Notes: generated by a model not told the origin, from the letters alone. DNA of 64,000 nt from an uncultured Verrucomicrobiae bacterium (GCA_963789055.1 CAWBJE010000001.1:77215-141214), one strand, 5' to 3'; counted from the first letter of the stretch, positions 27,138 to 61,736 are shown. Numbers and translations: made by a program.

Positions 27138-27141
27138 TTGC

Positions 27142-27210
27142 GATTTATGAATTTCGATTGACGATTTGCATCAGCGTTATTGACTGCGAGCCAATCATAA
27201 ATCATATATT
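27142..27210. repeat. Hairpin of the ATGATTT-type family
   Basis: GATTTATGAATTTCGATTG ... CAATCATAAATCAT. Same word family as 38898-38971. Lies in a divergent intergenic region. Confidence 0.5.
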
Positions 27211-27235
27211 GTCACGCGTAAATCACCGGATTCAG

Positions 27236-29422
<2,187 letters not shown>

Positions 29423-43145: not shown

Positions 43146-43682
43146 TTATATTCGCGGCAAGATGTTATTCAATGCGAGCCTGGCGATGTTGCGGGCGTCG
43201 TCCAGCGCGCGGTGAAGTTTTCCTTCGACCGGCAGTTGGCTCAAGGCGAGGGCACGCTTCATCCCGCACGGCGGAACGCCGGCCAGCCGGGCAAATTCCC
43301 GCTTCAGGTTGAGGTGATTGGAAAACTGCGCCGGGAACGGCAGCCTGTGCCGCGCGCAATCGGTTTTGAACTGGTTGAGATCGTACGTGCTCCAGGAACA
43401 AAGATGGTATGGCTCCGATCCGATCCAGCTCAGGAATTTCGGAAATACTTTGAAAAAATTGTCCGCTTCATTAATTTCCTGCTGCCGGATTCCGGTCAGG
43501 CCCATGCAAAAGGCGCTGAGGGTGGGTTCATGGAGCGGTCGAACGAAGGAGGCAAACTCCTTCTGGACCGGCCCCGTGTTGGAAGCGAGCAGCACGGCGC
43601 CAATTTCGATGATTTCCATGCGTTGCGAAACGATGCGCCCCATCCAGCAGGTCGCCTCCAGGTCCACAATCACGTAGCGCAT
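43146..43682 (-). CDS. DEDDh 3'-5' exonuclease (KapD/ERI-1-like)
   Basis: MRYVIVDLEATC ... EIIEIGAV ... SWSTYDLNQF ... HRALDDARNIARL. Track ORF is 43146-43775. Confidence 0.75.
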   Translation of the reverse strand: MRYVIVDLEATCWMGRIVSQRMEIIEIGAVLLASNTGPVQKEFASFVRPLHEPTLSAFCMGLTGIRQQEINEADNFFKVFPKFLSWIGSEPYHLCSWSTYDLNQFKTDCARHRLPFPAQFSNHLNLKREFARLAGVPPCGMKRALALSQLPVEGKLHRALDDARNIARLALNNILPRI

Positions 43683-43809
43683 GGCGCCAAGGTAGCCGGC
43701 GTTTTGGAATCCGCAATTCCCTGGTACTTTCGGGTTCCTTGGTTGACTATCGCCAGCCGCGATCGGGCCGCCCATTTCGGTTGGATTTTGCTCGTATCGC
43801 TTTCATGTT

Positions 43810-45075
43810 TCAGCTCATCAGCGTCACCCACGCCAGCAGGCCGGCAATGGCCGCCAGCGTCACCGGCACGCCCAGCCGGGCAAAATCGCGGAACGAAATA
43901 TTGATGCCCAGCTCGCGTGCCTGTTGCACGACGATGATATTGGAGACGCTGCCGATGATGATCAGGCTGCCGCCAAAACTGTTGGCCAGCGCCAGAATGT
44001 AGGCGGGGGCCGGATGGGAAAGGTCGATGACCTTCAGCAACAGCATCACCGCCGCCGAGTTGTTGATCAGGTTGGACAACACTGCCGTTGTCAGCGCCAG
44101 GCAGTGCGGCTGCGTTGAGGTTGAATCCGCTGTGCGCCAGCCATTGCACGGCCTGGTCGCCATAGCCGGTGGATTGAAACGCGCCGGTGACGACAAACAA
44201 GCCCATGAACAAGACGAGGATCGGCCAGTCCACCAGTTTCAGCAAATCGTCGGTGCGAAACTTGGTGCTGGCCAGGTGAATGCCGGCGGCGGCCAGCGCG
44301 ATGACTTCCTTGGGCAGCGGCGATGAAAAACAAACCGATGACCACGGCGAGAATGACCAGTCCTTTGATCGTGTGCGGCCGGTTGAACGGATAGGTTTGT
44401 TGGTTTGACTCCGATTTGCGCGGGCATGACGGATTCGAGTTTTTTCCGCGACAGCAGCCAGATGATGCCGTAGGCGGCGGCCATGGCGAAAATGACCGGA
44501 GCAGCGCACCACAGCAGGTAATGGCCAAAGTTCAAGTGCGCGACCTGGCCGATCATCATGTCCTGCGGATTGCCGATGAGCGTCGCCGCCGCGCCGATGT
44601 TGCTCGCAATGGCCAGCGCGATCAGAAACGGAATGGGATTGAGCCGTTTGCGCAGCAGCGCGGTGCCGACAATGGGCGCAAAAACGTAGCAGACGATGTC
44701 GTGGTTCAGAAACGCGGAGAGGCCGCCGGTGACCAGCATCAGGACGAGCAGAAACCGCGCGGGATTTCCCAGCCGCGCCGAAATGCCGCCGGCCACCCGG
44801 TCGTAGAATCCGGACAGGCGCAGTTGCGCCGAGAGACAAAGAATCCAAACAGCAGAAAAATCGTCGGCCAGTTGATGTAGGAAATGACCTCGCCGGTGCC
44901 GACGTCGCCGAAAATCATCATGGCGATGGCGCCGAGCAGGGCGATGCCCACGCGATTGAGTTTCAAGCCCGGCACGTGCCCCATGGCAATGCCCAGGTAA
45001 GTGATGGCGAAGATGGCCAGGATGACCGGCTTTTCGTGGAAACCCGGCGGGGACGGTGGCAAGCAGGCCGGTCAT
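43810..45075 (-). pseudogene. ArsB/NhaD-superfamily (citrate-transporter-like) anion permease; at least 3 frame breaks
   Basis: Pieces 44739-45062, 44239-45075 and 43810-44196: VILAIFAITYLGIAMG, LNHDIVCYVFAPIV ... ASNIGAAATLIGNPQ, LSNLINNSAAVMLLL ... GGSLIIIGSVSNIIV. Confidence 0.7.
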
Positions 45076-45085
45076 GGCGGATGTT

Positions 45086-45961
45086 TTATTTGGCGAGCGA
45101 TTTGCGGATGGCCTGCAATTCCTTGCGGCGCGCCTTGCTGGTTTTGGGATAACTCATCTTCAACGATTTCAAGCGTGTCGAGGATGATCTGCGAAATGAT
45201 GAGCCGGGCGTTTTCCTTGTCGTCGGCGGGAACCACAAACCACGGCGCGTGCCCGGTGCTGGTCGCGCTTAGACAGTCTTCATAAGCCTGCATGTAATCC
45301 TTCCAGAACTTCCGCTCCGCGATGTCGGCCTGGCTGAACTTCCAGTTTTTCTCCGGGTCGTCAATGCGCTCCAGAAACCGCCGGCGCTGTTCCTCCTTGG
45401 ACAGATGCAGGAAAAATTTCACGACGCGCGTGCCGTTGCGATACAGATGTTTTTCCAGGTCGCTGAATGGAGCGATACCGGTTTTCCCAGAATTTTTTGT
45501 CCGTCGAGCAATTCCTCCGGCAATTCCTGCGCGCGCAAGAATTTCCGGATGCACGCGCACGATGAGCACTTCCTCGTAATAGGAACGGTTGAAAATGCCG
45601 ATGCGTCCGCGTTCCGGCAGGCAGCGCGTCGTGCGCCAGAGAAAATCGTGTTCCAGGTCCTCGCGCGCTCGGATGTTTGAAGCTGAAAACCTCGCAGCCC
45701 TGCGGATTGACGCCGGACATGACGTGCTTGATGGCGCCGTCCTTGCCGGCGGCGTCCATCGCCTGAAAAATCAGCAGCAGCGAACGGTGGTTGTGGGCGT
45801 AGAGCAGACTTTGCTGCGCGCTCAATTCCCGGATGTGCGTTCCAAGGATGTGCTGGTAATGCTTCCTTCGATTGGTAAAACGGTCTTGTCCTGGTCGGCC
45901 ATTTTTTGAGTTTGACCGGTCTGCCTTCGCGAACACGGAATTGTTTTATATCAATTTTCAT
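45086..45961 (-). pseudogene. ppk2: Polyphosphate kinase 2; at least 3 frame breaks
   Basis: [29 protein letters not shown] (P-loop region), [54 protein letters not shown]. The C-terminus [25 protein letters not shown] was found in a third frame. The ATG overlaps the upstream stop as ATGA. Confidence 0.8.
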
Positions 45962-46740
45962 GAGATGATTTTGTCCGGACCGGCGGAGAATGGCTGGTTC
46001 CCGCCCGCGAAACTTCTTGTCGCTCCGTCGGCGATCATTTGTGCCGCATCCGGGCACGGAATGCGGTCGGTATTGATGACCAGATGATAGAGCAGGTCGT
46101 CGTCAACGCTCTCGTGGAAGTGAGATTTCAGGTAGCGCCCCCGGGCGCGGTCCTCCTGCTTGACGAGTTTGGCGGCTGCCGCCGGTGTCAGTTGGTTCAG
46201 TTTCTGCACCCGAGCGATCCGCTTCGGCAGCGAGGCCATCAGCCGGACGTGAAACACGTTGGGCATGCGCGCGGTGATGAAGTTGGCGCCTCGTCCCACC
46301 AGGATCACGTGCCCGGCGTCGGCCAGATGCAGGACGGTTTCGGCGATTTGCGGCACCACCACCCACGACGGCGGGCGCACCCCCAACAACTCCTCAATTA
46401 TATCTTGAATGACGGAGCGGCGGTCTTCCGGCATGAATTTGGCCAGCGCTTTCGGCAAATCATGTTCCTCAAGCACTTTTTCCACCAGACGGCGGTCAAA
46501 GACCGTCCATGAGACAGACCTTTTTGGTTCCGCGGCCTGTAAAAGTATGGCCAACCGTCCGGCAATTTCGTGGGCGCCCGACCCGGCCTGATGGGAAATC
46601 GTGATGGCGGGCCCTGGCGGCGGCAGGCCATGAACGATAGAGGACTTTTTCCTGGCCTGAAGTTTTCTGAGAATATAGGAATGACACTGTTCCAGTTGGG
46701 TTTCATGGGCGAAACTTTCGGTCGCATGTTCGGGTTGCAT
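45958..46740 (-). CDS. Cytidylate-kinase-like family protein
   Basis: ITISHQAGSGAHEIAGRLA ... ILVGRGANFITA ... VRLMASLPKRIARV ... YHLVINTD. Confidence 0.6.
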   Translation of the reverse strand: MQPEHATESFAHETQLEQCHSYILRKLQARKKSSIVHGLPPPGPAITISHQAGSGAHEIAGRLAILLQAAEPKRSVSWTVFDRRLVEKVLEEHDLPKALAKFMPEDRRSVIQDIIEELLGVRPPSWVVVPQIAETVLHLADAGHVILVGRGANFITARMPNVFHVRLMASLPKRIARVQKLNQLTPAAAAKLVKQEDRARGRYLKSHFHESVDDDLLYHLVINTDRIPCPDAAQMIADGATRSFAGGNQPFSAGPDKIIS

Positions 46741-46750
46741 AATCGTTTTC

Positions 46751-49225
46751 TTATTTCCGGGTTGACAGCACCGGCTGCGCGGGGTCCAGGATTCGATACG
46801 TGCCCAGCTTCACGCGGTCGTTGACGAAGAACCAGGCCAGCGCGTAACCCCAGATCACCAGCGCCCAATCCCAGCCAATCGGAGCCATGAACCAGCCGTA
46901 AACAGCGGCCAATGTGGCGATCACTTGCGTGCCAATCGCCGCCCAGAACAGCGACGGCCGCCGGGCGGATGGACCAGAACGGCCCGCGGGTGCGGGTGAC
47001 GAAAATCGTCAGGTGCCCGGCCACGGAGAGTTTCAGGTACATCAACGTTTGAATGACTTCGCGGCTCAAGCTCGAACGCCCGCTCGCCCAGGTAAAACAG
47101 ACCGAACGAGGCAAAAACGCCGGCGATGCCCAGCACCGTGGCGATGCCCAGCACCATCCGCATGTTCCAGGCCTCCGGGCTGGTTGGAGTACCGCACGCG
47201 GTCATAGGCAATGGAGAGGATTGCGCCGTCGTTCAGCAGCGCCAGCAGGACAATCATCACCGCCGTCACCGGATAGAAGTTGAAGACCAGAATCGAAAGC
47301 GTCATGAACAGCAGCACGCGGATGGTTTCGGCGATGCGGTAGATCGCGTAGCTGTTCATCCGCTGGAAAATCTTGCGGCTTTCCTGGATGGCGTCGATGA
47401 TGACCGACAGGCCGGGACTCAGCAGCACGATGTCCGCGGCCGCGCGAGCGGCGTCGGTCGCGCCGGAAACCGCGATGCCGGCATCCGCCTTCTTCAAGGC
47501 CGGCGCATCGTTCACGCCGTCGCCGGTCATGCCGACGACGTGGCCCCGCTTCTGCAGCACCTCGACGATATGATACTTGTGCTCGGGGAAGACCTGCGCG
47601 AAGCCATCCGCCGTTTCGATGGCGTCATCCAAGTTGGCCGCCTTGGTGCATGGTTCGTCTCAGCGAACAGGCTGGCGTCGAGAATGTTCGTTCCCAGCCC
47701 GACCTGCTTGGCGATTTCCTTGCCGATGGCGACCTGATCGCCCGTGACCATCTTCACGCGGACGCCCATTTCCTTGGCGGTATCGATGGTGGCCTTCGAG
47801 TCTTCTCGCGGCGGGTCGGAAAGCGGGAGCACGCCGAGGAATTGCCAGCGGTCCTGCTCGTCGGTGCGCGCGACGCCCAGCGAGCGAAAGCCGCGCGCGG
47901 CAAACTCGTTGACCGCTTTTTCGACCTCGGCCCGAACCTGGTCGGCGTTGGCCGCCAGCGCCAGGATGACCTGGGGCGCGCCCTTGGTGACCTTGAACTG
48001 CCTGCCATCCGGCAGCTTTGACCTTGGCTTCGGTGCGCTTGTGAACGGGATCGAACGGCTGGAAGTGGAGCACCTCGCAGGCCTTCGAGAGCTCCTTGTT
48101 CTTCAGCCCGCCGAGCACCGCCTGATCAATGGGATCCGCAGCTTCGGCCCGCGAGGCGAGCGCGGCGGCGAGGATCACCTCATCCGGCTTGACGCCATCC
48201 GACGCAGAACGGTTCGCCAAGCGTCAAGTTTGTTTTGCGTCAGCGTGCCGGTCTTATCCGAGCAGAGCACGTCCATGCCCGCCAATTCTTCGATCGCGGC
48301 CAAGCGGCTGACGATGGCCTGTTTCCGGGCCAGGATGCGCGCGCCCACCGCCATGGTGACCGACAGCACCGTGGGCATCGCGACCGGCATGGCCGCCACG
48401 GTCAGACACCAGCGCGAACTGGAGCGTGGTGTCCAACTTGGTCGCCGCGGAACAGCGCCACGGCGATGATCAGGACCACCAACGCCACGGCGATGACGAT
48501 GAGGAAATCGCCGATCTTCAGGACCGCCTTCTGGAAATGGCTGACCGTATGGGCCGATTCGACCAGTTGCGCGGTCTTGCCGAAGTAGGTGTTCTTGCCC
48601 GTGGCAGAAACCAGCGCGTCGATCTCGCCTTGCCTCAGGATGGAACCGGAATAAACGATGTCGTCTGGATTTCTTGTCGACCGGCAGCGATTCTCCGGTC
48701 AGCGCGGATTGGTCCACTTCGACCGGGTCGCCGTCCAGCAATTTCGCGTCCGCCGGCACGATGTCGCCGAGGCGGAGCCGGACCAGGTCGCCCGGCACCA
48801 GTTCGCGGGCCGGGATTTCGCCCCAGGCGCCGATCCCGTTTGACGCGCGCTTTGAGGGCCAGGTTGGCCTTGAGTGCGGCGATGGCGTTGCCCGCCTGAA
48901 ATTCCTCCCAAAAGCCCACGACGGCGTTGGCCAGCAGCAGGACAAGGATGATGATGAAGTCGGCCCAATGCTGGACCAGCGCGGAAAGAATGGCCGCCGC
49001 TTCGATCATCCACGGAATCGGCCCCCAGAAGTGCGAACAGAATTCAAGGAAGGGATTGCGCTTCTTCTCCGGCAGTTCGTTGTAGCCATATTGCGCCACG
49101 CGGCGCCTGGCCTCGTTCTGGCTCAGACCGTCAGGGGAAGTTTTCAATTGCGCCTGCAATTCGGCCAGGCTGGGTTCGGTCGTCTTGCCCGCGGCCCTGG
49201 CCGTGGCAGGCGTTGAATCGTTCAT
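46751..49225 (-). pseudogene. Type IIIA (plasma-membrane H+-pump-like) P-type ATPase; at least 7 frame breaks
   Basis: [50 protein letters not shown]; [13 protein letters not shown]; MVTGDQVAIGKEIA; [21 protein letters not shown]. The C-terminal ...WALVIWGYALAWFFVNDRVKL was read by hand down to the stop at 46751. Confidence 0.85.
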
Positions 49226-49251
49226 GTCATTCCTTTCCATTCGCGCCGCCG

Positions 49252-50497
49252 CTACATATAGGGGCAATGAATGCTGATGGCTTCATACAATGAATGCGGC
49301 ACCGGCACGATGATGAGCAGCAGCAACAAGAGCGTGAAATAGCCCAGCATCCGCCGCGGAAAGCCGACCGGCGTCACGTCATTGGCGGCGGGCGCGTCGC
49401 GCGTGCCGGCGATGAAGAAGACGATGAACGCCCAGAACATCAGCCCCGGCCACACAAACAGCGCCAGCAACAACAGGCAGGCCAACGCCACCATGCTGAG
49501 GCCATGCGCGTTGCGCGAGCCGAACAGCGCGTGCGAAATATGGCCGCCATCGAGCTGCCCAATGGGCAACAGGTTCAGCGCCGTGACGATCAATCCCAGC
49601 CAGCCGGCAAAGGCCAGCGGATGCAGCAACAGCCGATTGCCTTCGAGCACCGAGGCCCCCAACGACATCTTCGCCAGGCACGCCAGCAGTACCGAGGAAC
49701 CGATATTGACCCCGGGGTGGCCCAGAGCCATCGACGAGTCGCCCGGAATGACCTCCGAAAATCGCAGCCCGATCAGCAAAGCGGGAATGGCAAACACCAG
49801 TCCGGCCAGCGGTCCCGCCACCGCCACGTCAAACAGCGCGCGGCGATCGGGCGTGAGCGACTTGATTTTGATGAAGGCGCCAAAGGTTCCCAGCGCAAAT
49901 GGCACCGGGATGAAATACGGCGGGGTCACCCGGATGCCGTGCGCCTTGGCGGTGAAATAATGTCCCAACTCGTGCGCGCCGAGGATGAGCAGAAGACCCA
50001 GACTGTAGGGCAGACCGACGGCGAAACGCGCCGGCTGCTGGAGCAGATTCACTCCCGCGTGGAGCGCGCCGGCCCAGGTGGTGGTCGCGACCGTGGCGAG
50101 CGAACAACAGCCAGTGCAATCCCCAGTTCGGCCGCTCGGCGGCCGGCTCGACCATCTTTCCCGGCAGAATCAACACGCGCACGTCATCCGCTTCGCCTTC
50201 CAGCAGCAATGGCGTGACGGGTTCGCCAGCAAAGGCCTCGCGGATTTTTCGGAACATTTCTTCCGCCTTGCCCCGCAGCCTGCCTTCAAACTGAAACATA
50301 TCGCCGACGACCTTGCGGCCCGTGATCATCAGCAGGGGCGCCAATCGCGACTCGATTGCCGCCAGCTTTTCCGCCGGGATTATGGGCGGCACCTCCCGGC
50401 CGGCCGCCAGCCGCACCGCGGCGCTTCGCGCACCCAGGGTGTAAGCCAGATAAAATACCGCCAGCAGAATCAGCCAGAAAAGCAGTCCGTTGATCAT
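49252..50497 (-). pseudogene. Site-2 (M50) metalloprotease; 1 frame break near 50.08 kb
   Basis: HELGHYFTAKAHGIRVTPPYFIP ... NLLPIGQLDGGH in 49252-50052. The N-terminal part is in 49829-50497. Confidence 0.75.
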
Positions 50498-50919
50498 GAT
50501 GCCTCCGATTTCCCTGAAGTGCCCGGTCCGCCGGAACCCGGGCTTTCGGCTCCTTCGGCGCCGGCCTTGAGCCAGGCGCGGGCATTTTCCGTTTCGGCCT
50601 GGTCAAAATAACGGACCTCCGCCCGGGTGAACGGTTTGCAGAACCCGGCCATCCACTGGTGCCATTTCTTTTCACCCACCACCGCCAGACGCTCGATGTC
50701 GCTGAAGTGGCGCGTGGCAAACTTGGTGTCCTCCCACATCGCGCCCGCCGTCCAGCCGTGGAAATCGCGCATCCCGACCAGCATGCGGATTTTGCCGTGC
50801 TGTTTGACCAGCCGCTCCACCACGGGAACGAACTGTTCGTATTCCGCCTTGACGAGTTTCCCCGTGAGCTGGATTTCCAGCTCCCGGCCATCTTGGATTT
50901 CATTGAGTTCAATCGGCAT
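50494..50919 (-). CDS. SpoIIAA/STAS-like (DUF3478-type) protein
   Basis: 141 aa. LEIQLTGKLVKAEYEQFVPVVERLVKQHGKIRMLVGMRDFHGWTAGAMWEDTKF ... IERLAVVG. Confidence 0.5.
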   Translation of the reverse strand: MPIELNEIQDGRELEIQLTGKLVKAEYEQFVPVVERLVKQHGKIRMLVGMRDFHGWTAGAMWEDTKFATRHFSDIERLAVVGEKKWHQWMAGFCKPFTRAEVRYFDQAETENARAWLKAGAEGAESPGSGGPGTSGKSEAS

Positions 50920-50946
50920 ATGGGTTTTGGGTTGGGTTGATTTGAA

Positions 50947-52095
50947 TCAATTTGAATTCAGGTGTTGCCAGGCTTCGTCCAGATCGCGATGGCAGCGGGA
51001 CAACCAGGCTTCGCCCCAGAAAAAATTACAACTGGTTTCCGCCCGCAACAAGCGCCAGTGCGCCTCCTCCAACGGCGTCCCGGCGTCCCGGGCGCGCTGA
51101 CGCAAGCGGTGAAGCGCCTGGCTGGTCGCGGCAACCCGCCCGAGCGCGTCCTTTTGGGCCGGCGATCCGGTCCACTGCATAAAGCCCCGGCCATGATGCC
51201 AGCCGGTGTTCCAGGCGCCGGCGCGCACCTCCACCCGGCCGTGCGCGCCGTGGCGGGCCAGGTAATCCTCGATGAACACCGGGCGGACTTCGGTCTCGCC
51301 GCTCCGCACCCGTTCCAGCAGCGGCTGGTAGAACACGCCCCAGAAATTGCCCTTGGCGGATACATTGCGGAACCAGCCGCCGTTGTCGCCGTCGCTGACG
51401 GTGGTCACCAGCGGCGGAAAATCGCAGCCTTTGGTCCGCTCATGCACCTCCTGCATGAACCAGCCACAGTCCATGCCGGCTTCCTGCGCGTTGGACAACT
51501 CGCGGTCGCGCACGATCACCACGATTTCTTCGCCGCCATAACTGGCGATGTGAGGGCGGTAGCGAATCTCCTCCCAGCGCATCGGTTCCAGCGGCTGCAC
51601 ATGTTCGCTGTCCACGAGCACATAGCGGTAGCCCAGCCGCCGGAGCAGTGGAATCAGCTCCATGCAAAAACCCATTTCCGGCGGCCAGAAGCCGGAAAAT
51701 TGTTCGCGCCAGAAGAGGTGCCGGCCGATTCCCCGCCACCGCGCCAGTTGCTCCTCCCAATCGGCCGCCGGGATGAGCGGCAGCACCGGATGATAATAAG
51801 CCGTGCCGAGGATCTGGAAAATATTCCGGTTCTGCAGGTGCCAGAGCAGGTCGCCGCATTTGACGATGCCATAAACCCGCTGCTGGAATTCCGGGTTGGC
51901 GAGGATTTCCAGCAGCGTGCCGGACAGGGAAAGATGGACGCGCGCCACGTCTTCAAACGGCCAGAGCGCGCGCGGCATACGGTCAAGGGCATAAAGAATT
52001 TCCCGCGCCTCCCACTCGTGATCCCGCAGCAGGGCGTCGAGATTGCCCGCCGGCTGGTGTAGATTCAAAACGAGGGCATGAAAGATTTCGCTCAT
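50947..52095 (-). CDS. Glycoside hydrolase family 57 protein
   Basis: 382 aa, intact. ALVLNLHQPAGN ... LSLSGTLLEIL ... GTAYYHPVLPLIP ... FWPPEMGF. Confidence 0.75.
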   Translation of the reverse strand: MSEIFHALVLNLHQPAGNLDALLRDHEWEAREILYALDRMPRALWPFEDVARVHLSLSGTLLEILANPEFQQRVYGIVKCGDLLWHLQNRNIFQILGTAYYHPVLPLIPAADWEEQLARWRGIGRHLFWREQFSGFWPPEMGFCMELIPLLRRLGYRYVLVDSEHVQPLEPMRWEEIRYRPHIASYGGEEIVVIVRDRELSNAQEAGMDCGWFMQEVHERTKGCDFPPLVTTVSDGDNGGWFRNVSAKGNFWGVFYQPLLERVRSGETEVRPVFIEDYLARHGAHGRVEVRAGAWNTGWHHGRGFMQWTGSPAQKDALGRVAATSQALHRLRQRARDAGTPLEEAHWRLLRAETSCNFFWGEAWLSRCHRDLDEAWQHLNSN

Positions 52096-53006
52096 AACAA
52101 GGGAGGCAAGGCGGCGCCCGGACCGGCCGCCACCATGGGCAGCTGGCGCGGTGTCTGGTGCGAACCCGGCGTGGCGGGCGCCGCCGGGAGCGATTCATTC
52201 CACATCTGCAACAACGCGTCGCGCGCCTGATTCAGGAGTGACGGCGGCTGCGGCCATTGTTCGAGAATCATCGAGCCGGAAAAGCGGCGCTGTTTCAGCC
52301 GCTGGATCACCCCGCGCACACCCGCATCGTCGCGCGCCGCCGGGCCGGTGAACAGCGGCAGGTGGCTGTCGGCGTCGCCCCAATTTTCATGGAGGTGCAG
52401 ATGAATGATCGGGACGTGCGGCGAGAGCCGGTCGAAATAGCCGAGATAATCATTGCGGGTGGCGGGGCAGAGATTGGCGTGGCCGAGGTCGAAGCACATG
52501 CCCACGCCGCCGGTTCGGGTCAAATCCAGGTCCCGCAGGTGCGCAAACAGTTCGTTGAATTGTTCCGGCGGATAGAGCGGGGTGTTTTCAATGGCCAGTT
52601 GCAACCCGGTGCCGGCCAGGAGCTGGATCAGCCAGGTGATGGATTCGACGTACGCTTTCAGGCCGTTCTCGGCCTGCAGATGAATATTCAGCAGCGCCGC
52701 GCCCAGGTCGCGGACCAGTTCGACATCCTTAAGCAACCCGGGCCGCCATCCCGGCTCCAGCGGATTGGCTTCCAAGCGCGCATGCACCGAAAGCCGCACG
52801 CCTTGCGCTTCCGCGGTCTTCCGAATGATGCGGCGTTGCACCCGGCTCAAATCGTCCTCCGCCCAACCGGCGCCCGACGGCTTCTTGTCGGGGAACCATT
52901 CGAAGGCGTCGAAGCCGGCCGCCAGCGCGTACTCGAACGGCTGCATCAGCGCGCCGGCCGCGCAGGCAGTCTGGTTGCCAATGCAAATGGAGCGCGATTT
53001 ACGCAT
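52092..53006 (-). CDS. Xylose-isomerase-like TIM-barrel protein (sugar-phosphate isomerase/epimerase family)
   Basis: FDAFEWFPDKK ... LSVHARLEANP ... LAIENTP ... CFDLGHANL ... IHLHLHENWG. Track ORF is 52092-53264; start chosen at ATG 53006. ATGA overlap with the GH57 start. Confidence 0.65.
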   Translation of the reverse strand: MRKSRSICIGNQTACAAGALMQPFEYALAAGFDAFEWFPDKKPSGAGWAEDDLSRVQRRIIRKTAEAQGVRLSVHARLEANPLEPGWRPGLLKDVELVRDLGAALLNIHLQAENGLKAYVESITWLIQLLAGTGLQLAIENTPLYPPEQFNELFAHLRDLDLTRTGGVGMCFDLGHANLCPATRNDYLGYFDRLSPHVPIIHLHLHENWGDADSHLPLFTGPAARDDAGVRGVIQRLKQRRFSGSMILEQWPQPPSLLNQARDALLQMWNESLPAAPATPGSHQTPRQLPMVAAGPGAALPPLL

Positions 53007-56000
53007 GGCCCGCTCCCGCCTGCAGACGCGTTTGCAACAGAAAATATTTACCTCCGGCAAAAGCGCCTTCGATGTCCTGTGCCGACTCCAGCGCCGACTC
53101 GACGGCCAGGCCGAGCCGCGCGACGGCCTCGAAAAGGCCGTTTCGGAAGTTTTCATCCCACACCAATGGTTCCTCGGCATAATCCAGTCGCGTCCAGCGC
53201 GGCGGCGGCAGCAACACGCTGTTGTACAGGCCCGCCCCCGCGTAACCCGCCAAATCCTCGCCATTGGAGTCGGACCGGAAAATCAGGCCGCCGCCATACC
53301 ATCCGGCGCTTTTGCTGGGGAACGAAACCAGTGTCGGGAGTGTGGTGTTTTTGTTCCAGATAAAGCCCAATGCCCGGCCTGGATGATTGCCGACCAGCGT
53401 TTCGCCCAGGCCGGGGACGACCTCGGCATAGAGCTCGTCGTGGTTCCCGGTGGACGGATTGGTGGTGTGGATGACAAAGGCATATTCGGCCTCAATCACC
53501 GGTTGAATGAGCACGGCCATGAACAGGTGCCGGTGCGGGATGCCCATTTTATTCCGGCTGAGCACGGCGCGTTCGTTCCATTTTGAGGCCCAGACCTGTT
53601 TGATGCACCGCCACGCTTCGGCCTCATCTTTCGGCCAGGCCAGCCCGGCGCGCGGCGAAGGTTTCGCGCAATTCGGTCAACAATTCCGTCGGCGCCGCCA
53701 ACACCTGGATTATTTCACGCAATTGCGTGAGTGTTTTTGCGTCGGAGGAATCGTCCTCCAGATTCCGGGTCAGTTCCTCATATTGCCGCGCCGCCGGGCG
53801 GTTGGCCGCCAGCGACAGCACGTGCTCAAACACGCCAAAAGGCAAGGCCACCGAAGGCGGAAGACAAATCCACTCCGGCAACCGGCCGCGGAGCTGCGCC
53901 AGATGGCATGATTTTCCACCGACAATCTTTTCGTTGAATTCGTTCCATGGTCACCGCGTAGCGGGTGAATTTGGGTGGTTTGACGACAGCCAAGGTGCGG
54001 CGGGGGCGGGCCGGCGCGGTGGTTGCAGGCGCAATGGCTTTCTCATACCACACGTCGCCGGCCGGTGTCACTTCAAGGCGTAATTGTTGTCCGCGCAAAG
54101 ATTTCAAGTGGTCCAGTGTGGGCGGGTCGGAGCAGGAAGCAAAGAGGACCTGCGCGTTGCGCGCGCGAACGGCCACATGCGACACCAGATCGGTCACGTC
54201 GGGAGCAATCACGGCGACAACCTTTTCGGGAATTTCCTCGTCGCCCATCACCCGGTCCGTGACCACCACCGTTGGCTGGTCAAGGGTGCGGCCCTGGACG
54301 GTTTGCAACGCGGGGGTGACTTCAACCCGCCCCGTCCCGCTGCCGCGGCTGACAATCTGCCACGCGCCGAGCCGCGCCGTCTGGCGCAACTGGCGGTCAA
54401 GCTGATGGAGGAGCATTGAGAGCGCGAACCCGAGACTGCTGCCGCGAACGACTTCCTCGCTGAACAGCGTAATCGTCCAGTTGTTCCGCGTTGAAACCGC
54501 GGCCGAGGATATTCGGCCTTCGGCTGGAGCAACTGATAGAACCGGTCCGTCCAGTCGCTCAAGGCGCGGCCGATGCGGTCGGTGACCGATTTGGCGTGAA
54601 GCGACCACGTAGCGGTGAAGCGCGGCACGGTTTGCAGCCGTTCCCAATGACGCAGGCACGCGGCCAGTTCGACGTCTTCGTGCGATAAGATCACATTTTC
54701 CAGAACGCAGCCGGTCAGATCCGCCAGCGGTTCACCGCCCAGACGCAGGTGGATGTTGCGTTCCACCACGACCCGCACCAGTTGTTCGAGGGCAAGGTCC
54801 AGATAGAGCAACGGGCGCAGACCCTCGCCGCTGTTCAACAAATGTGACACCCGGCGGCGAACTTCGGTAATTTGTTTCACCAGCGGGACCAGCGCCTCGG
54901 CCGGGTCGTTGCGATGATCCCACACGTGGGCCAGCAATCTTTGAGTGTCCCCGTCCAGACGGTCGCGCGCGGAATTAATGGCGGTTTCCAGGTCGGTGCC
55001 GGAGTGGATTGCTTTGAGCACGCGGAGGAAGTTATCGAAATCCCGGATCAAGGCGTCCTTCAAATAGGGCACAAAGCCCGGTTCGGTGCGGATGGGCCGC
55101 TCGAAACTCTCCAGGCGTTCGCGGGTCACGCCGCCGTCCTGCAAGGCCTGATAAAACCGGTCCAGTCGGCCGTTGCTGCGGAGAAATTCGAGATAGGCCT
55201 CGCAGATGACGATGTCGTCGGGGGTCGTATTGTTGTGGAGTTTCTGGTGCCATTCCTCCATAAAATGACCGCTGGCCTCCTTGATGTGATGCCGGTGCAT
55301 GATCCGCAGTATCTCGTCGCGAATGCGCTGGCCGTCGCCGCCGCGGCCCACCGTCGCCAGCATCAGGCGGATGAACGAGCGGGCGTGGGGTTCGCTGCGA
55401 TAAAGTTCCGCGAGTTTGTTCGTCAGGCGATCCTGGGCGTGGCTCAGTTCGCGCGGTTTGGTGTTGTAATTGCGCTGCCAGGTCAACTGCCGGATGGCGG
55501 AAAAGCGCAACCAGATGTAGAGCAGCGCGAACCCGCCGGTTTTGCCGCGCACCTGGTCAAGCAAATCGTAACAGAGATTGAAGCGATGCATCAGCGTCCA
55601 TGAACTGGGACTGACTTCGGCCCGGATGATCCGGTCGCCCAGGGCGGCGAGGTCCGCCGCATCCAGCAGCGGTGCCGAGCGCAGTGTCGTGTGGACGGGC
55701 ACATAAAAATTGCCGCCGCGATGGTTGAGCCAGCGTCCATCGCCGCCCTGCTTCAGCACGAATTGAATGCCCAGCGGCGCGTCCGCCTCGGAAAATTCCC
55801 AGATCAGTTGTTGGAAGCCATCGCTCGCCACAAACGGCGTTTCCGCCGTGTGTCCGTCCGGAAAAATCGTGCCGGGCGGTCGCAGCGATTCGGGCGGTTG
55901 CAGCCATTCATAAGGCGAACGGCGGGCGATGCCCCAATGCAACACCAGCGGACCGGGAACATCCGACAGCAACAATACGCGGTAGCGGTCCCCGGCTTTG

Positions 56001-56528
56001 GTCAGCCCGGCGGCCAGACGGCCGGAGTTGCCAACCTCGAACACGCGTTCCAACAGTACTTCGGCTTCACCGCACTGCGTCTTGAGCGCCGCGAGCGGCG
56101 ATGACACCGGTTCCCGCGTCGGCGCGGACACGACGATCCGGTAATTCAAGCGGTCGTTGTTGTCCCAACGCTTTTCGTCAGGGAAATAGAGGACGAATTC
56201 GATGAACCCGTACGGCGTCGTCCGGACTGAGGGCTATGGCCACGCGGCTTTCACCGTTCTGTTTTTTGAACGGCGTCTGCATGGCACTGAAACCGGCGGG
56301 TGTGGTGGTACCTTCCGGCCAGAATGAGGGAGGCAGGACCTGCCAGTTGGGCTGGTCTTTCTGCCGCAGACCCCAGTGCAGCACGCAAGGCCGGCCGGTC
56401 TGCGCCCGCAACGACACTTCAATTTGCCGTTTTTCCACATGCTTTTCCACCAGTAGCTTCACGCCACTGCGCGTGGCGATGATTTCGGTCTCGCCGGCCG
56501 TTTCGGGTGCTGAAAGTAGTGAATTCAT
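52999..56528 (-). pseudogene. Alpha-glucan, water dikinase (plant GWD/R1-type) homologue; at least 4 frame breaks
   Basis: Pieces 56178-56528, 54248-56149, 53826-54659, 53624-53881 and 52999-53565. Two LHWG modules, MEEWHQKLHNNTTPDDIVICEAYLEF, the His loop DLVSHVAVRARNAQVLFASC, and AFVIHTTNPSTGNHDELYAEVVPGLGETLVGNHPGRALGF ... RSDSNGEDLAGYAGAGLYNSV ... QDIEGAF. Confidence 0.8.
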
Positions 56529-56549
56529 GTTCGTAAATTCATGTTCGTA
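56522..56549. repeat. Perfect tandem duplication of a 14-nt unit spanning the GWD start codon
   Basis: aattcatgttcgta occurs at 56522-56535 and again at 56536-56549. Confidence 0.85.
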
Positions 56550-56563
56550 TCATCCATCTGGAG

Positions 56564-57025
56564 TCAGTAATGACTCAATCGGTAAAAGGTTTGCCGACCG
56601 ACGACCGCCACGGGCTGTTTGCCTTTGGCCCAGTAAGGCCGTTCGGTTCCCCGGGTGTAATGGTTGGCGGACCCGACCAGGTCGGGCAATTGGTCCGGGG
56701 CCTGACACATTATCTGCGCCAAGCGCAGCGCCACTTGAAAACCCGGTTCTGAATGAAATTTTTGGATGAGCTGGTTCACGGACGCGCCGTTCAGGCAGGA
56801 AAACGCGTGAACGCGGCCCCGATGGAACTCCACCACCTGCAGCGGTGTTCGGTCCTTTTCCATCGCCCGCTGGCGAATGACGTCGGCGACGGCGGTCATG
56901 CCTTGCGCCCCGTCTGACCAAGCCTCGCCCATGAGCACGGCGGCGACGGCCTGCTCCTGATAGGTCTGGGCCGTCGCCGCCAGCGGCAGGCTGCACAAAC
57001 AGAGGAATGTGGGAAACCAGTTCAT
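56564..57025 (-). CDS. SleB-type cell-wall hydrolase (Hydrolase_2) with a signal peptide
   Basis: [20 protein letters not shown] ... [27 protein letters not shown] ... FSCLNG ... ANHYT. Its ATG overlaps the glgB stop as ATGA. Confidence 0.6.
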
Positions 57026-59028
57026 TTGTTCCGATTGACAAAAACGATAGTCGCCAGCGGCGGGAGCGTCAGGTTGACGGAGTGGGGGCGGTAGTGGCAT
57101 TTGATGGGTTCGGCGGTGACGCCGCCGCAATTTCCCTGGCCGCTGCCGCCGTATTCCCGGGCGTCGCTGTTCAGGATTTCCTGCCAGAAACCGCCGCGGG
57201 GAACGCCCACCCGATAGTTGCGGCGGACCGACCGGGGTGAAGTTGAACACGGCCAGGACCAGATCGCCGCCGGCGCTCGCCTTGCGGATGAAACTCAGCG
57301 TGGTGTTTTTGGCGTCCTGATAATCAATCCACTCGAAGCCGTCGGGGCTGAAATCCAGTTCGTGCAGGGCTGGCTCGGCCCGGTAGACGCGGTTGAGGTC
57401 GGCAACCCATTTCTGCACGCCGGCATGGAACGGCTGATTCTCCACGTGCCATTCGACGCTCGATTCGTGGTTCCATTCCGGCCATTGCGCCAGTTCATCG
57501 CCCATGAACAACAGCTTCTTGCCGGGCTGGGCGAACATGTAGCCGTAAGAGGAGGCGCAGGTTGGCGTATTTCTGCCATTCGTCGCCGGTCATCATGCCG
57601 AACAGCGAACCTTTCCCATGCACCACCTCGTCGTGGGAGAGCGGCAGGACGTAATTTTCGCTGAAGGCATACACCATCCGGAAGGGAAGTTCGCCGTGAT
57701 GATATTTCCGGTAAATCGGCGGCCGCTTGAGGTAGCGCAGCGTGTCGTGCATCCAGCCCATGTCCCACTTCATGTCGAAACCCAGCCCGCCGGCGTAAAC
57801 GGGCCGCGAAACTTTCGGCCAGGCGGTGGATTCCTCGGCGATGGTCAGCACGTCCGGATGCTTCGGCGATGGATTTCCGTGTTGAGTTCGTGCAGAAACT
57901 CGATGGCTTCCAGGTTTTCGCGTCCGCCATGCCGGTTGGGAATCCATCCGCCCGGTTTGCGGGAGTAATCCAGATAAAGCATGGAGGCCACGCCATCAAG
58001 CCGCAAGCCGTCCACGTGATACTGGTCGAGCCAGAACAGCGCGCTGCTGATCAGAAAGCTGCGGACCTCGTTGCGGCCATAGTTGAAAATGGCGCTCTTC
58101 CAATCGGGATGAAATCCTTTGCGCGGGTCGGCGTGCTCGAAGAGATGCGTGCCGTCGAAATAGGCCAGGCCGTGGCCGTCGGCCGGGGAAATGCGACGGC
58201 ACCCAGTCCAGAATGACGCCGATGCCCTGCTGGTGCAGATGATCCACGAGAAACATGAAATCCTGCGGCGTTCCGTAGCGGCTGGTGGGCGCGAAATAAC
58301 CGGTGGTTTGATAACCCCAGGAACCATAGAACGGATGTTCGGTGACCGGCAGGAATTCCACGTGCGTGAAACCCATGCCGCTGTGACGTAATCGGCCAGT
58401 TGCGGCGCCAGTTCGCGCTAGGTCAACGAGCGGTTGCCTTGCTCCGGCACGCGCCGCCAGGAGCCGGGATGCACTTCATAGATGGCGATGGGGGCATCCG
58501 GCTGCGTTGCGCCTGCCTGCGTTCCGCCATCCAGTCACCATCGCCCCAATCGTATTTCAAATCCCATACCACCGATGCCGTCCGGGGCGGCGTCTCGCTC
58601 AGAAATGCAAAAGGATCCGCCTTGTCCATGGCGTGGTTCTGGCAGTTGGAAATGACGTGATATTTGTAACGCGCATCCTCTTTCACGCCGGGCACGAAAC
58701 CGTGCCAGACGCCCGACTGCGGTGTCAGATTGATCGCCTGGCCGTTTTTGTCCCAGTGGTTGAAATCACCGATGACCTGCACCAGCTTCGCGTTGGGCGC
58801 CCAGACGGCGAAATAAGCGCCAGATTCTCCATTCACCGAGCACAAATGCGCCCCCAGCTTTCGGTAAGCCCGGCATTCCCGTCCCTGCAAAAAGGCGTCA
58901 ATGTCACCACCGGAGAACAGCGGTTTGTCCTGGCCGAAGCTGGGCGGCTCAGATGGAGCGAACGGTGAACCGGCGGTTCGTTCGGGCAAGGACTCGATGG
59001 TCGTCGTTGGATAGGTCAACAGCTTCAT
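57022..59028 (-). pseudogene. glgB: 1,4-alpha-glucan branching enzyme; at least 5 frame breaks
   Basis: YFAVWAPNAKLVQVIGDFNHWD; [64 protein letters not shown]; [16 protein letters not shown]; IAEESTAWP; [15 protein letters not shown]; PPLATIVF. These are spread across at least 6 minus ORFs. Confidence 0.9.
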
Positions 59029-60187
59029 GACTGATAGCAATGCTCGGTTTTTTCCGCGATGACGTCCCAGTTGAACACGGTCTCGGCGGCCCGCCGGCCG
59101 TTGCTTCCCATCCAGCGCGCCCACTCGAAATTCGTGAACAACGTTCCCAAGCCCCAGCCCACCGATTCCGGCGTGGCATAAACCTTCAGTCCGGTGACGT
59201 TGTGCCAGATGAACTCGCTCGGGCCGCCGTTTTGCGACGCGACCACCGGTTTGCCCGCCGCCCAGCCTTCCAGGGCGCTGATGCCGAACGGTTCGTTGCG
59301 GCTGGGCATGCAGACCACGTCGCAAGCCTTGTAAAGGTCAACCAGCGCCCAGCCGTTGTGATAACCCAGGAACCGCGTGGCGTGGGCGACCCCCAGTTGT
59401 TGCGCGCGCCGTTCCAGATCGCCGCGCAGGTGGCCGTCGCCGGCAAATACAAACTTGGCGTTGGGATAATATCGCAGCAATCCCGGCACGGCTTCCAGCA
59501 GCAGGTCCGGTCCCTTCTGCACGCACAATCGGCCGCTGAAAAGCACGGTCGGGTCCACCGGACCGATGCCGTAGCGGCGTTTGACGCCGCCGGGATCAAG
59601 GTAACCGTCGAATTTGTGAACCGGCACGCCGTTGTGGATCGCCCAGCATTTCCAGTCCGGAAGGTTATACATCCACATCAACTCGTTCTTGAGCGCGCCG
59701 CTCACGGCGATCACGCGGTCGGCGCAATAGGTGCCATGCCGTTCATGGTCCCGAATGCGTGCCGACGTGCCGCCCCAAAAGTTGTTTCCGCATCGCCCAT
59801 ATTCCGTCGAGTGCATCGTGAGCACCGCGCGATGATCCCGGCGCGTCTGCTTGATCCAAACCATCGGCGTTGGACGCCAGCCAGTCGTGCGCATGAACCA
59901 CGTCGAAATGGCCGATGTAATCCTCCGTCTGGAAAAAGTGCCAGACAAACGACCGGCACATTTCCTGAATTTCGTCCACGAAATTACGATTCAAATTATG
60001 GGGGCAATAGTGGTACCACACCCCATCAATCCGGTACACGCCTCCGCTGCCGTAGCCCGGCCGGGTGAAGACATGCACCTCGTGACCGCGCCGTTGCAGC
60101 GCTGCTGCCAGTTCCGTCACGTGCGCGGCGATTCCGCCTACTGCTTGGGAGTGCAAGCGTTTCCCATGAAAACATCGCTATTTTCAT
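59025..60187 (-). pseudogene. GT4 glycosyltransferase, glycogen-synthase-like; 2 frame breaks
   Basis: Hand-read start MKIAMFSWETL (ATG 60187), then HSQAVGGIAAHVTELAAALQRRGHEVHVFT (59743-60156), then ...HSTEYGR ... CMPSRNEPFGISALEGWAAGKPVV (59025-59948). ATGA overlap with the glgB start. Confidence 0.8.
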
Positions 60188-60327
60188 CGTACTGTCCTCC
60201 TTTCATCTGCTGTCAACGGCCCGGCAACTCGTCGTCACCGGGCAACCTGCCCGCTCCACTCCCGTCCCTGCACCATTCAAAAACACCACAAACCCCACCG
60301 GCCCCCAAAAGCGCCGCCGCGCCCGGC

Positions 60328-60642
60328 TCAAGGCGTCGGCTTGCTGGCAACCGCGCCCACTTGACGAACGGCATTGAAGCCGCCGAAAGGGTTCGAAACG
60401 CGGACCGTGCATTCCGGGTCGTCCGCCCATTGGCCGTCCACGATGAACCGGTAATGATGGGTGCCAGGCATCAGGACGACGTTGGTCTTCCAGACCCCGC
60501 CGGTCTCCCGTTTCATGGCAATGGCCTCGTCCTTCCAATGGGTGAAATCGCCCGCCAACTGCACGCTCAACGCATCCGGCGCGGTGAAGGCGAATGACTG
60601 TTTTTGCCCGTTGCTGCTTTTAAAATTTGTTTTCTTTGGCAT
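60328..60642 (-). CDS. Stand-alone CBM48/AMPK-beta-type glycogen-binding-domain protein
   Basis: 104 aa. FAFTAPDALSVQLAGDFTHWKDEAIAMKRETGGVWKTNVVLMPGTHHYRFIVDGQWADDP. Confidence 0.7.
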   Translation of the reverse strand: MPKKTNFKSSNGQKQSFAFTAPDALSVQLAGDFTHWKDEAIAMKRETGGVWKTNVVLMPGTHHYRFIVDGQWADDPECTVRVSNPFGGFNAVRQVGAVASKPTP

Positions 60643-60890
60643 AATCTTTTCTTTCTAATGTTGTTGATTCGACGCCCTATTCAACGTTCTATGCGGGAAT
60701 AACCTGCACTTGGTTACAGGACCCGAACCCGATCCATCTCAAAATCCATGCTTGCGCGTGAAGGCCAAACTGGGGGGTTCATGCCGGGTCCGACAGCGTT
60801 AACCACCTCCACTCGGGGAACTTTGCTCCCCGCCGTGGAGCCTGGCAATAACGAGTTGTTCACCATATATTCACCGTTTGTTCGCCGCCC

Positions 60891-60967
60891 CCGATTCCAC
60901 CTGCGGCGGCTTCACTTGACGCCCCACCGCAGGTGTCGGTTTCCTCCACCTCCTCGGTTTTTCCCGA
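60891..60967 (-). ncRNA. Copy A of a two-copy conserved structured element (function unknown)
   Basis: About 75 nt alignable with 63291-63370. 12-bp stem 60898-60909/60924-60935. On the minus strand it is preceded by GAGGAGGUGGAGG. It lies at the 5' end of the 376-nt leader of the CBM48/glucan operon. Confidence 0.45.
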
Positions 60968-61018
60968 TGCAAGGAATGATGGTCTCGCTCAGGCCGCAAT
61001 TACTGTCCTACCTTGCTG

Positions 61019-61672
61019 TCAATGGTCAAACCGTTGAAACAGAGCACTGGCTCCCAGGCTCAACAGCCCAACCAGAATCAACGTCATGGGCACCATGCCG
61101 ATGATGGCAAGGATTCCCAGCACGATTGCCGCCAGTCCAACGAGCATGTGCCCGCCGGTTCCCACAGCCACCACGGCACCGGGCGCGTTTTGCGGCGGTA
61201 CCTGGACCTGCAATTGGACCGGCCAGATCAACCGCGAGACCGCCCCGCCTCCCAACAGGAGAGTCGCTCCAAAAACGAGCACGGCTGCTGCGAGCAGGGT
61301 GTCCGGCAGGGCCTGGAACAGACCCAGGATGCCCAGAACGATCCCGGCCAGCCCGCCGAAGAATTCGGCGGTAACACCACCACTCAATTCCTGGGCTTGT
61401 CTTTGGTTTGCGCCATGGGAAGGCAGCCGGCGCCAGGTCAGGCCGGCCAATCCACCCTCCATCAGAATAACGGCGCCGATCACAATCGTGGCTATGGCCG
61501 CCATGTCACTGGTCATAATCCCCGCCAACCCGATGACCGCCAGGACGATGGCCCCAATCGCGCCGATACCCTCCGCAACGGAACTGCCTGCCATCCCGCT
61601 CAAAACCGATTCCGATGGGGGATCGTGAACTGCTTGTACTTCAGTTGTATTCATTGTCTTTTCTCCTTTCAC
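61019..61672 (-). CDS. Gly/Ala-rich multi-pass membrane protein with an internal repeat
   Basis: Recurring G(A/L)(A/I)G(A)IVL(A/G)(V/I)(I/L)GL motifs: GAIGAIVLAVIGLAGI, GGLAGIVLGILGLF, VGLAAIVLGILAIIGM. Confidence 0.45.
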   Translation of the reverse strand: MKGEKTMNTTEVQAVHDPPSESVLSGMAGSSVAEGIGAIGAIVLAVIGLAGIMTSDMAAIATIVIGAVILMEGGLAGLTWRRLPSHGANQRQAQELSGGVTAEFFGGLAGIVLGILGLFQALPDTLLAAAVLVFGATLLLGGGAVSRLIWPVQLQVQVPPQNAPGAVVAVGTGGHMLVGLAAIVLGILAIIGMVPMTLILVGLLSLGASALFQRFDH

Positions 61673-61736
61673 TCATTGTTCTCTTGGTTCACAGCGGCAG
61701 TGACACTGTATCCGCCACCTGCCGCTTTAAATTTTC

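Follow-up and report, generated by a model that had tools for sequence, protein, structure and literature searches.

The locus analysed here lies at positions 50947-60642 of a 64-kb window, this being the whole stretch of DNA examined, from an uncultured Verrucomicrobiae bacterium, and is composed of seven co-directional genes on the minus strand, one of which encodes a homologue of the plant alpha-glucan, water dikinase (GWD). Coordinates are positions within this window, and L-numbers designate related loci or contigs. The original prediction, made from the sequence alone, had proposed the order CBM48, GT4, GlgB, SleB-like, GWD, TIM barrel and GH57, and the Pfam matches bear out both this order and the families of all seven genes:

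60328-60642, minus strand: CBM48/AMPK1_CBM protein, 104 aa, first gene of the cluster
59025-60187, minus strand: GT4 retaining glycosyltransferase, 386 aa once two frameshifts are repaired
57022-59028, minus strand: GlgB (GH13 branching enzyme with CBM48), Pfam matches on successive frame pieces
56564-57025, minus strand: SleB-like Hydrolase_2 protein, 153 aa, Pfam PF07486
52999-56528, minus strand: GWD, 1174 aa after removal of five single-base insertions
52092-53006, minus strand: AP_endonuc_2 xylose-isomerase-like TIM barrel, 304 aa
50947-52095, minus strand: GH57 protein, 382 aa, Pfam Glyco_hydro_57

The overlaps claimed at four junctions are also present: the GT4/glgB, glgB/sleB-like and TIM/GH57 pairs overlap by 4 nt (ATGA), and the GWD stop and the TIM start share 8 nt (ATGCGTAA). 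The sleB-like gene and GWD are separated by 35 nt, and a 140-nt spacer including AGGAGG precedes the GT4 gene. A promoter and terminator scan of the 50.2-61.8 kb region returned sites no more frequent than in shuffled controls, and tRNA and Rfam scans of the window gave no matches. The reported lack of glgC, glgA-GT5, glgP and glgX in the window was found again by two approaches, as tblastn with representatives detected no glgA-GT5, glgP or malQ in the 64 kb, and no Pfam family of the glgC, glgP or glgX type was matched among the approximately 60 window open reading frames (ORFs) tested. Neither GlgE nor, by tblastn, a second dikinase is found in the window, and the Cx5R/HCxxGxxR motif of the DSP phosphatases occurs in no real window ORF. 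Among the operon proteins, all but the SleB-like one lack a signal peptide; the substrate of the operon is therefore expected to be intracellular.

The dikinase encoded at this locus is very probably a genuine and intact GWD orthologue. The joined frame pieces, expected to give a protein of about 1170 aa, give 1174 aa after repair, with two CBM45-type modules (residues 26-112 and 161-278, all limits being approximate), a central helical domain (297-717), a phosphohistidine domain (721-829, with His783) and a nucleotide-binding domain (870-1170). The two LHWG modules described in the original prediction as CBM45-like were recovered as a double match to PF23166 (GWD1 Ig-like N-terminal domain, E=1.6e-43 in all), a family that we take to be equivalent to CAZy CBM45. 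The phosphohistidine loop LVSHVAVRARN, likewise predicted, falls in the match to PF22973 (GWD phosphohistidine domain, E=4e-33), and the C-terminal block AFVIHTTNPSTGNHDELYAEVVPGLGETLVGNHPGRALGF, described in the original prediction as nearly collinear with potato/Arabidopsis GWD1, falls in the match to PF01326 (PPDK_N, E=9e-22) and aligns with plant and algal GWDs. The fourth predicted element, the MEEWHQKLHNNTTPDD block, aligns column for column with the GWDs of cotton, water lily, a red alga, a glaucophyte, a green alga and an apicomplexan, as do the loop and the AFVIHTTNP...GLGETLVGNHPGR block of the nucleotide-binding domain. The EEWHQKLHNN block and the catalytic loop align with their plant counterparts, and His783, invariant across 15 homologues, corresponds to the His of plant LSHVSVRARN. 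Residues 297-717 matched the solved plant GWD central domain (9ha9, E=3e-91; 9qvi, E=2e-90).

Over 870 aligned columns, the window GWD is 42-47% identical to the GWDs of Gossypium, Nymphaea, Cyanidium, Gloeochaete and Picocystis, and 26-28% identical to bacterial PWD-like paralogues. In the neighbour-joining tree, GWD and PWD-like proteins are split in 100 of 100 bootstrap replicates, and the window GWD groups with those of Verrucomicrobiota, the closest being that of L001, from a peat metagenome-assembled genome (MAG), at 77-79% identity. Of the checks proposed earlier, the phylogeny places the protein with the GWDs, and the catalytic His is conserved. An identity as PEP synthase or PPDK was rejected on the basis of the GWD-specific domains, of the tree split and of the short match of the PEP synthases, which is limited to about 70 residues of the nucleotide-binding domain (974-1046) at 1e-8. 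The redox pair CFATC of land plants reads LFASC in the window GWD, and the aligned algal GWDs also lack the first Cys; the CFATC disulfide is a redox switch of land plants and does not define the family.

The strong similarity to archaeplastid GWDs could also be understood if algal or plant DNA had been misassembled into a bacterial contig, an explanation whose probability we consider negligible. The gene has no introns, it belongs to a run of bacterial-type neighbour genes linked by 4-nt and 8-nt overlaps, it lacks the long N-terminal extension of the eukaryotic GWDs, the G+C content is even along the window and the operon recurs in many independent bacterial MAGs. Eukaryotic contamination was consequently rejected on conserved bacterial synteny.

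In the window as it stands, GWD is read in six frame pieces, with five 1-nt insertions at approximately 56213, 54509, 54485, 53945 and 53654; these sites were placed by comparison with homologues, and deleting the five bases restores a single ORF. Two frameshifts are found in the GT4 gene (near 60160 and 59865) and six in glgB, together with an in-frame TAG (58418-58420) where relatives have Tyr, giving for the three genes 13 frameshifts and one stop codon in approximately 6.7 kb. The breaks are carried by the deposited assembly, in which a 627-aa GWD fragment (P0001) is found at 100% identity. Taken literally, these figures would indicate a glucan operon decaying in this strain, with real frameshifts, a real stop codon in GlgB and three pseudogenes. 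We regard such a decay as highly improbable, as similar breaks affect unrelated and even essential genes elsewhere in the window (DnaE, CstA, a CitMHS transporter, PPK2 and a P-type ATPase in at least four pieces; example regions 7991-9121, 27029-28081, 43670-45075 and 46398-49267), next to intact genes such as those of a 794-aa heavy-metal ATPase and a 505-aa HtrA. This window-wide pattern fits an unpolished long-read assembly.

An independent contig from a public run (L081, ERR11523672, 3888 bp), reached via an exact look-up of the TIM protein (P0121), is 99.7% identical to window positions 50589-54479. At both GWD frameshift sites that it covers (about 53941 and 53654) the extra bases are missing, and the contig encodes an unbroken 492-aa GWD C-terminus followed by identical TIM and GH57 genes. 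The GWDs of relatives are single ORFs of 1161-1176 aa, the GWD of another long-read MAG (P0095) is broken in a like manner, and the amino acids between the breaks are highly conserved, as seen in the identity to L001. Since unrelated genes are also split, L081 lacks the insertions and relatives are intact, the breaks are attributed to assembly errors; at the two sites covered by L081 they are assembly indels, and pseudogene status was rejected for this part of GWD. The degraded gene that the original prediction had held out as its alternative is in this way refuted where the independent contig reaches.

At and just upstream of the GWD start (56528-56553, minus strand), a 13-nt tandem duplication is observed, with ACGAACATGAATT present twice. 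A mini-ORF of five codons (MNLRT) results, with its TGA overlapping the ATG of GWD; the duplication is not seen in L001, L002, L005 or L082.

Full-length relatives of this GWD are encoded at 315 loci in a scan of a one-genome-per-species collection, in Verrucomicrobiota, Acidobacteriota, Nitrospirota/Thermodesulfovibrionia, Desulfobacterota, anammox Planctomycetota, Nitrospinota and others. Gemmataceae and Myxococcota join the GWD-bearing groups through a protein search, and 287 clusters were obtained at E<1e-30 among 1.84 billion cluster representatives, eukaryotes included. No cultured isolate carrying a bacterial GWD was identified. When the ORFs of 80 neighbourhoods were clustered, the recurrent neighbours were GT5 GlgA, long and short GH57, MalQ, GlgB, a GT4 of the window type, glucan phosphorylase, a GH13/hDGE_amylase-like protein and DUF4912, so that alpha-glucan genes surround the bacterial GWD relatives almost always; no DSP phosphatase family was recurrent in these 80 neighbourhoods. 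The reading of one cluster (c1) as GlgE-like was dropped, Pfam and NCBIfam giving GH13/hDGE_amylase-like only.

The conservation of the operon, another check suggested with the prediction, is seen in two Verrucomicrobia with intact GWDs, in the order GT4-GlgB-GWD-TIM-GH57 in L082, with the same 4-, 8- and 4-nt overlaps, and in the order GT4-GWD-TIM-GH57 in L084. In L001, GlgB is detectable before the SleB-like gene just as a C-terminal part (8788-9312), and a search within 10 kb gave no GT4, so that even close relatives differ in the upstream half of the operon. In the neighbour-joining tree, the bacterial GWDs cut across phyla, with the Acidoferrum sequence (L027) inside the Verrucomicrobia clade and the Anammoxibacter (L043) and Nitrospirota (L036) sequences paired at 100% support. 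As this tree does not follow the phyla, it suggests repeated lateral transfer of the GWD locus among bacteria. The direction of donation between bacteria and eukaryotes is not settled by the same tree, bacterial monophyly being recovered in 34% of the replicates and eukaryotic monophyly in 9%. A GWD of bacterial length (P0250, 1177 aa) is found in the MMETSP transcriptome of Gloeochaete wittrockiana and in short JGI metagenome contigs; its place in the tree is next to the glaucophyte GWD, and it comes either from a contaminant of the culture or from a second gene of the glaucophyte.

In 58 of the 71 loci with enough downstream sequence, the gene immediately after GWD is that of the TIM barrel, mostly overlapping GWD or at a distance of at most 10 nt, and in a reverse sampling the two TIM homologues taken were both preceded by an intact GWD. 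The original prediction had named two uncharacterised partners, the TIM barrel and the small CBM48 protein. The first is upheld by this linkage; the second was rejected as a conserved partner, a small CBM48 gene being found near GWD-TIM in only one of 85 related loci (L037), on the opposite strand. The CBM48 gene of the window (Pfam AMPK1_CBM, E=2.4e-14; CBM_48, E=3.8e-9) is an accessory gene.

The TIM protein matches Pfam AP_endonuc_2 (PF01261) at E=1.4e-21. In two alignments of 22 and 34 homologues, residues H75, E140, D173, H176, H202, H204, H206, E207, D213, H215 and E249 are invariant, and H109 is invariant in the first set (A2) and at least 90% conserved in the second (A3). Nine of these residues (H75, H109, E140, D173, H176, H204, D213, H215 and E249) align with all nine ligands of the trinuclear metal site of endonuclease IV (Endo IV), which are H69, H109, E145, D179, H182, H216, D229, H231 and E261 in E. 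coli Nfo; the Nfo sequence used and PDB 1qtw gave the same alignment and score. In searches with the family profile, the best match was MJ1311 (3wqo, E=1.7e-13), followed by endonuclease IV (7e-5 to 4e-3), with UlaE behind. By profile, the characterised proteins nearest to the TIM protein, Endo IV and CbiR, are both phosphoesterases; CbiR, a phosphodiesterase of the same superfamily, acts on cobamides and not on DNA (PMC7733943), an example of non-DNA phosphoesters as substrates in this superfamily. The TIM protein thus shares the Endo IV metal site, and it is not filed as an AP endonuclease, none of the NCBIfam Nfo models matching it. Its AF2 model (pLDDT 86) is a TIM barrel of eight beta/alpha units, for which Foldseek gave MJ1311 as the best match and AP endonucleases at E=2e-10 to 4e-8.

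On the grounds of the Endo IV ligands, the profile matches and the linkage to GWD, we put forward the TIM barrel as a candidate metal-dependent phosphoesterase, and more precisely as a phosphoglucan phosphatase acting on the GWD product, a role for which our confidence falls a little short of even. The competing explanation, which we hold to be rather unlikely, keeps a working GWD and makes the TIM protein an isomerase/epimerase, or a phosphodiesterase for another substrate, with dephosphorylation taking place elsewhere or not at all. The databases name the TIM family 'sugar phosphate isomerase/epimerase', Foldseek places ketose 3-epimerases (2e-9 to 1e-7, 11-15% identity) among the AP endonucleases, and MJ1311 was deposited as 'D-tagatose 3-epimerase-like'. 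The metal site speaks otherwise: ketose epimerases have a single-metal site with four ligands (E-D-H-E), which are a subset of the nine conserved in the TIM protein, and the latter keeps five additional Endo IV-specific ligands (H75, H109, H176, D213 and H215). Endo IV and CbiR, moreover, come ahead of UlaE in the profile searches, and the TIM gene is tightly coupled to GWD in translation and occurs fused to PWD-like dikinases, as described below.

In many Nitrospirota, Desulfobacterota, anammox and Acidobacteriota loci and in some Verrucomicrobia loci, a PWD-like dikinase is encoded downstream of GWD, where it follows the TIM barrel or, in several phyla, is fused to the TIM C-terminus:

L025, 13380-16925: PWD-like dikinase
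L027, 13032-16844: PWD-like dikinase
L029, 13585-17193: PWD-like dikinase
L033, 3031-6864: PWD-like dikinase
L007, 13802-17311: PWD-like dikinase
L079, 15019-17619: PWD-like dikinase

These proteins are composed of GWD1_pHisD and PPDK_N domains and a PWD-like central block, with no CBM, and carry a RIRDIAHRNDIP...KHTLQNKLHR block, which we take to be that of plant PWD. After the PWD-like dikinase, a family of approximately 360 aa (c3) is encoded in L079 (17570-18655) and in 21 other loci (alignment A4). The c3 family has no Pfam or NCBIfam match and is distantly related to the TIM protein linked to GWD (hhalign probability 92.5%), with the same ligand positions in the aligned stretch (His, His, Glu, Asp-x-x-His). 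By analogy, two dikinases each accompanied by an Endo IV-like TIM protein would echo the GWD/PWD and SEX4/LSF2 pairing of plants.

Among the other genes of the operon, the GT4 gene encodes a putative alpha-glucan synthase or GlgM-like maltose-1-phosphate synthase. Its product matches Pfam Glyco_transf_4 and Glycos_transf_1, and shows 82-88% identity with the GT4 proteins encoded before GWD in L002 and L003, and 63-73% with those of Nitrospirota loci; its PDB matches are unspecific, MshA (80 bits) coming before archaeal GlgA and GlgM (approximately 57 bits each). GlgB gives CBM_48, Alpha-amylase and Alpha-amylase_C matches on consecutive frame pieces, tblastn with the GlgB of L003 spans its length in alternating frames, and an intact 669-aa orthologue occupies the same position in L082. 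The SleB-like protein has a signal-peptide-like N-terminus and matches PF07486 at E=5.7e-6 (27.3 bits for a cut-off of 27), with no NCBIfam match; the window and L001 are the only loci with its gene between glgB and GWD, L082 and L084 do not have it, and it is probably a passenger, inserted in this lineage. The GH57 protein (Glyco_hydro_57, E=5e-16), whose gene follows TIM or GWD in Verrucomicrobia loci, is predicted to act on alpha-glucan. Its nearest structure is the 4-alpha-glucanotransferase of T. litoralis (1k1w, E=1e-6), and its motif GVWLTERVW aligns with GFWPPEMGF of 1k1w, presumably the site of the nucleophile Glu.

Outside the operon, the gap of approximately 1.1 kb between the CBM48 and HtrA genes (60643-61736) contains just ORFs with no Pfam match, on both strands, and may hold the operon promoter or a broken gene. 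On the 3' side, beyond an M50 peptidase gene, a PPK2 fragment, a cytidylate-kinase-like gene and a cation P-type ATPase gene are found (45072-49267, minus strand); a P-type ATPase adjoins the operon in L082 also. The regions 35242-36681 and 14439-15920 of the window are listed for a transposase of the Tn5 type (Tnp_DNA_bind and Dimer_Tnp_Tn5) and for an HTH_32/HTH_28 protein of 494 aa, maybe also a transposase.

On balance, and with reasonable confidence, we read the locus as a cytoplasmic storage-glucan operon of a soil or peat Verrucomicrobiota bacterium, built around a GWD orthologue that probably acts on an intracellular alpha-glucan. The following steps could be proposed: (i) a branched alpha-1,4/1,6-glucan would be built by GT4 and GlgB; (ii) the two CBM45-type modules would attach GWD to this glucan; (iii) the beta-phosphate of ATP would be transferred onto His783, with release of AMP and Pi, and then onto a glucosyl hydroxyl, at C6 by analogy with plants; (iv) the phosphate would loosen the packing of the chains and hydrate the glucan, giving access to GH57 and to other hydrolases or phosphorylases; and (v) the TIM metalloenzyme would cleave the glucan phosphate ester, so that degradation could continue.

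Several points weigh against this model. For the dikinase, the phosphorylation of the glucan, the polymer and the position (C6 or C3) are inferred, and no functional or biochemical study of any bacterial GWD homologue was found in the literature. For the glucan synthase, the best NCBIfam match of GT4 (TIGR02149, glgA_Coryne) reaches 143 bits for a cut-off of 302. The breaks in GT4 and GlgB, like those in the first two thirds of GWD, would be assembly errors by analogy. For the TIM protein, the gene is absent within 10 kb of GWD in 13 of the 71 loci, which also favours an epimerase or another phosphodiesterase; the sole NCBIfam match is the CbiR phosphodiesterase (NF041277, E=2e-10, 40.5 bits for a cut-off of 105); MJ1311, the best structural match, is without known function; and the fold search on the predicted model does not, by itself, separate an Endo IV-type enzyme from the ketose 3-epimerases. 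Finally, a fusion of dikinase and phosphatase could look futile.

The dikinase could also phosphorylate an acceptor other than a storage alpha-glucan, either another polysaccharide or a small molecule. The dikinase fold serves many acceptors, for example in rifampicin phosphotransferase, the PWD-like paralogue matches PEP synthase and rifamycin phosphotransferase models, and alpha-glucan as the substrate of GWD is itself inferred. We nevertheless judge this quite improbable, given that the CBM45-type modules and the GWD-specific central domain are common to the window protein and the plant enzymes, and that alpha-glucan enzymes are its neighbours in many phyla.

Reversible glucan phosphorylation is regarded as a eukaryotic process, performed by GWD/PWD with SEX4/LSF2 in plants and algae and by laforin in animals, and linked to starch granules and to Lafora disease. 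In the literature, GWD, PWD and SEX4 are treated as host-derived eukaryotic genes (PMC8703398), and GWD is described as restricted to starch accumulators and as having arisen with the primary plastid, bacteria appearing only as possible recipients of lateral gene transfer (PMC6260743). The original prediction was aware of no characterised bacterial glucan-phosphorylation pathway. This stands as far as function is concerned, no functional study having been found; as to the genes, homologues are widely distributed in bacteria and already carry the name alpha-glucan, water dikinase at JGI, and a possible lateral transfer was noted once (PMC6260743), so the bacterial GWD gene itself is not new. 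Its breadth among bacteria, its constant position within glucan operons, the Endo IV-like partner and the PWD-like paralogue were not found described in the literature.

Our data are in agreement with the idea that the locus may point to a bacterial version of reversible glucan phosphorylation. A wider proposal, which we consider unlikely at present, would be that at least five bacterial phyla hold an unstudied system of this kind, comprising GWD, often a PWD-like dikinase, and two Endo IV-like TIM families as new non-DSP phosphatases, and that this system is ancestral to the eukaryotic starch dikinases rather than these being a host invention. Three questions become accessible through the locus: whether storage glucans of bacteria carry phosphate, and perhaps have a semi-crystalline state; where the starch dikinases originate; and whether the glucan phosphatases include a new, metal-dependent kind with a TIM-barrel fold. 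Being compact, free of a transit peptide and accompanied by soluble partners, the bacterial GWDs could also be handy for structural work and starch modification.

Compared with known systems, the window GWD is closest to plant and algal GWD1 (potato R1, Arabidopsis SEX1; EC 2.7.9.4), with the same domain order and the 42-47% identity over 870 columns given above. It differs from plant GWD1 in its length (approximately 1170 aa instead of 1300-1700 aa), in lacking the transit peptide and the long N-terminal extension, in having LFASC for CFATC and in being encoded in an operon with overlapping genes, and its activity is predicted. PWD/GWD3 (EC 2.7.9.5) belongs to the same dikinase superfamily, yet the bacterial PWD-like proteins are only 26-28% identical to the window GWD and split from it at 100%; they lack CBM20, and fusion to TIM is frequent among them.

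The likeness of the TIM protein to SEX4, LSF2 and laforin would be functional only, in the removal of phosphate enabling glucan breakdown, as the former is a metal-dependent barrel with no CBM20 or CBM48, whereas the latter have the Cys-x5-Arg DSP fold. The TIM-barrel superfamily that it shares with Endo IV (Nfo), MJ1311 and CbiR is closer in structure, and all nine Nfo ligands are kept; MJ1311 reportedly keeps nine ligands and lacks a DNA groove. The TIM protein nevertheless differs from Nfo, MJ1311 and CbiR by its low identity (17-22%), by scores under the family cut-offs and by a context of glucan instead of DNA, and no cobamide genes are found near it, its neighbours being glucan genes. 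With the classical glgBXCAP operon the window shares glgB only, the dikinase and the metallo-TIM being absent from classical operons. With respect to the GlgE/GlgM pathway, the window GT4 resembles the actinobacterial GlgA/GlgM type most closely, in a window with no GlgE, and genes of the GH57 and GH13-like kinds are found with the GWD-TIM pair.

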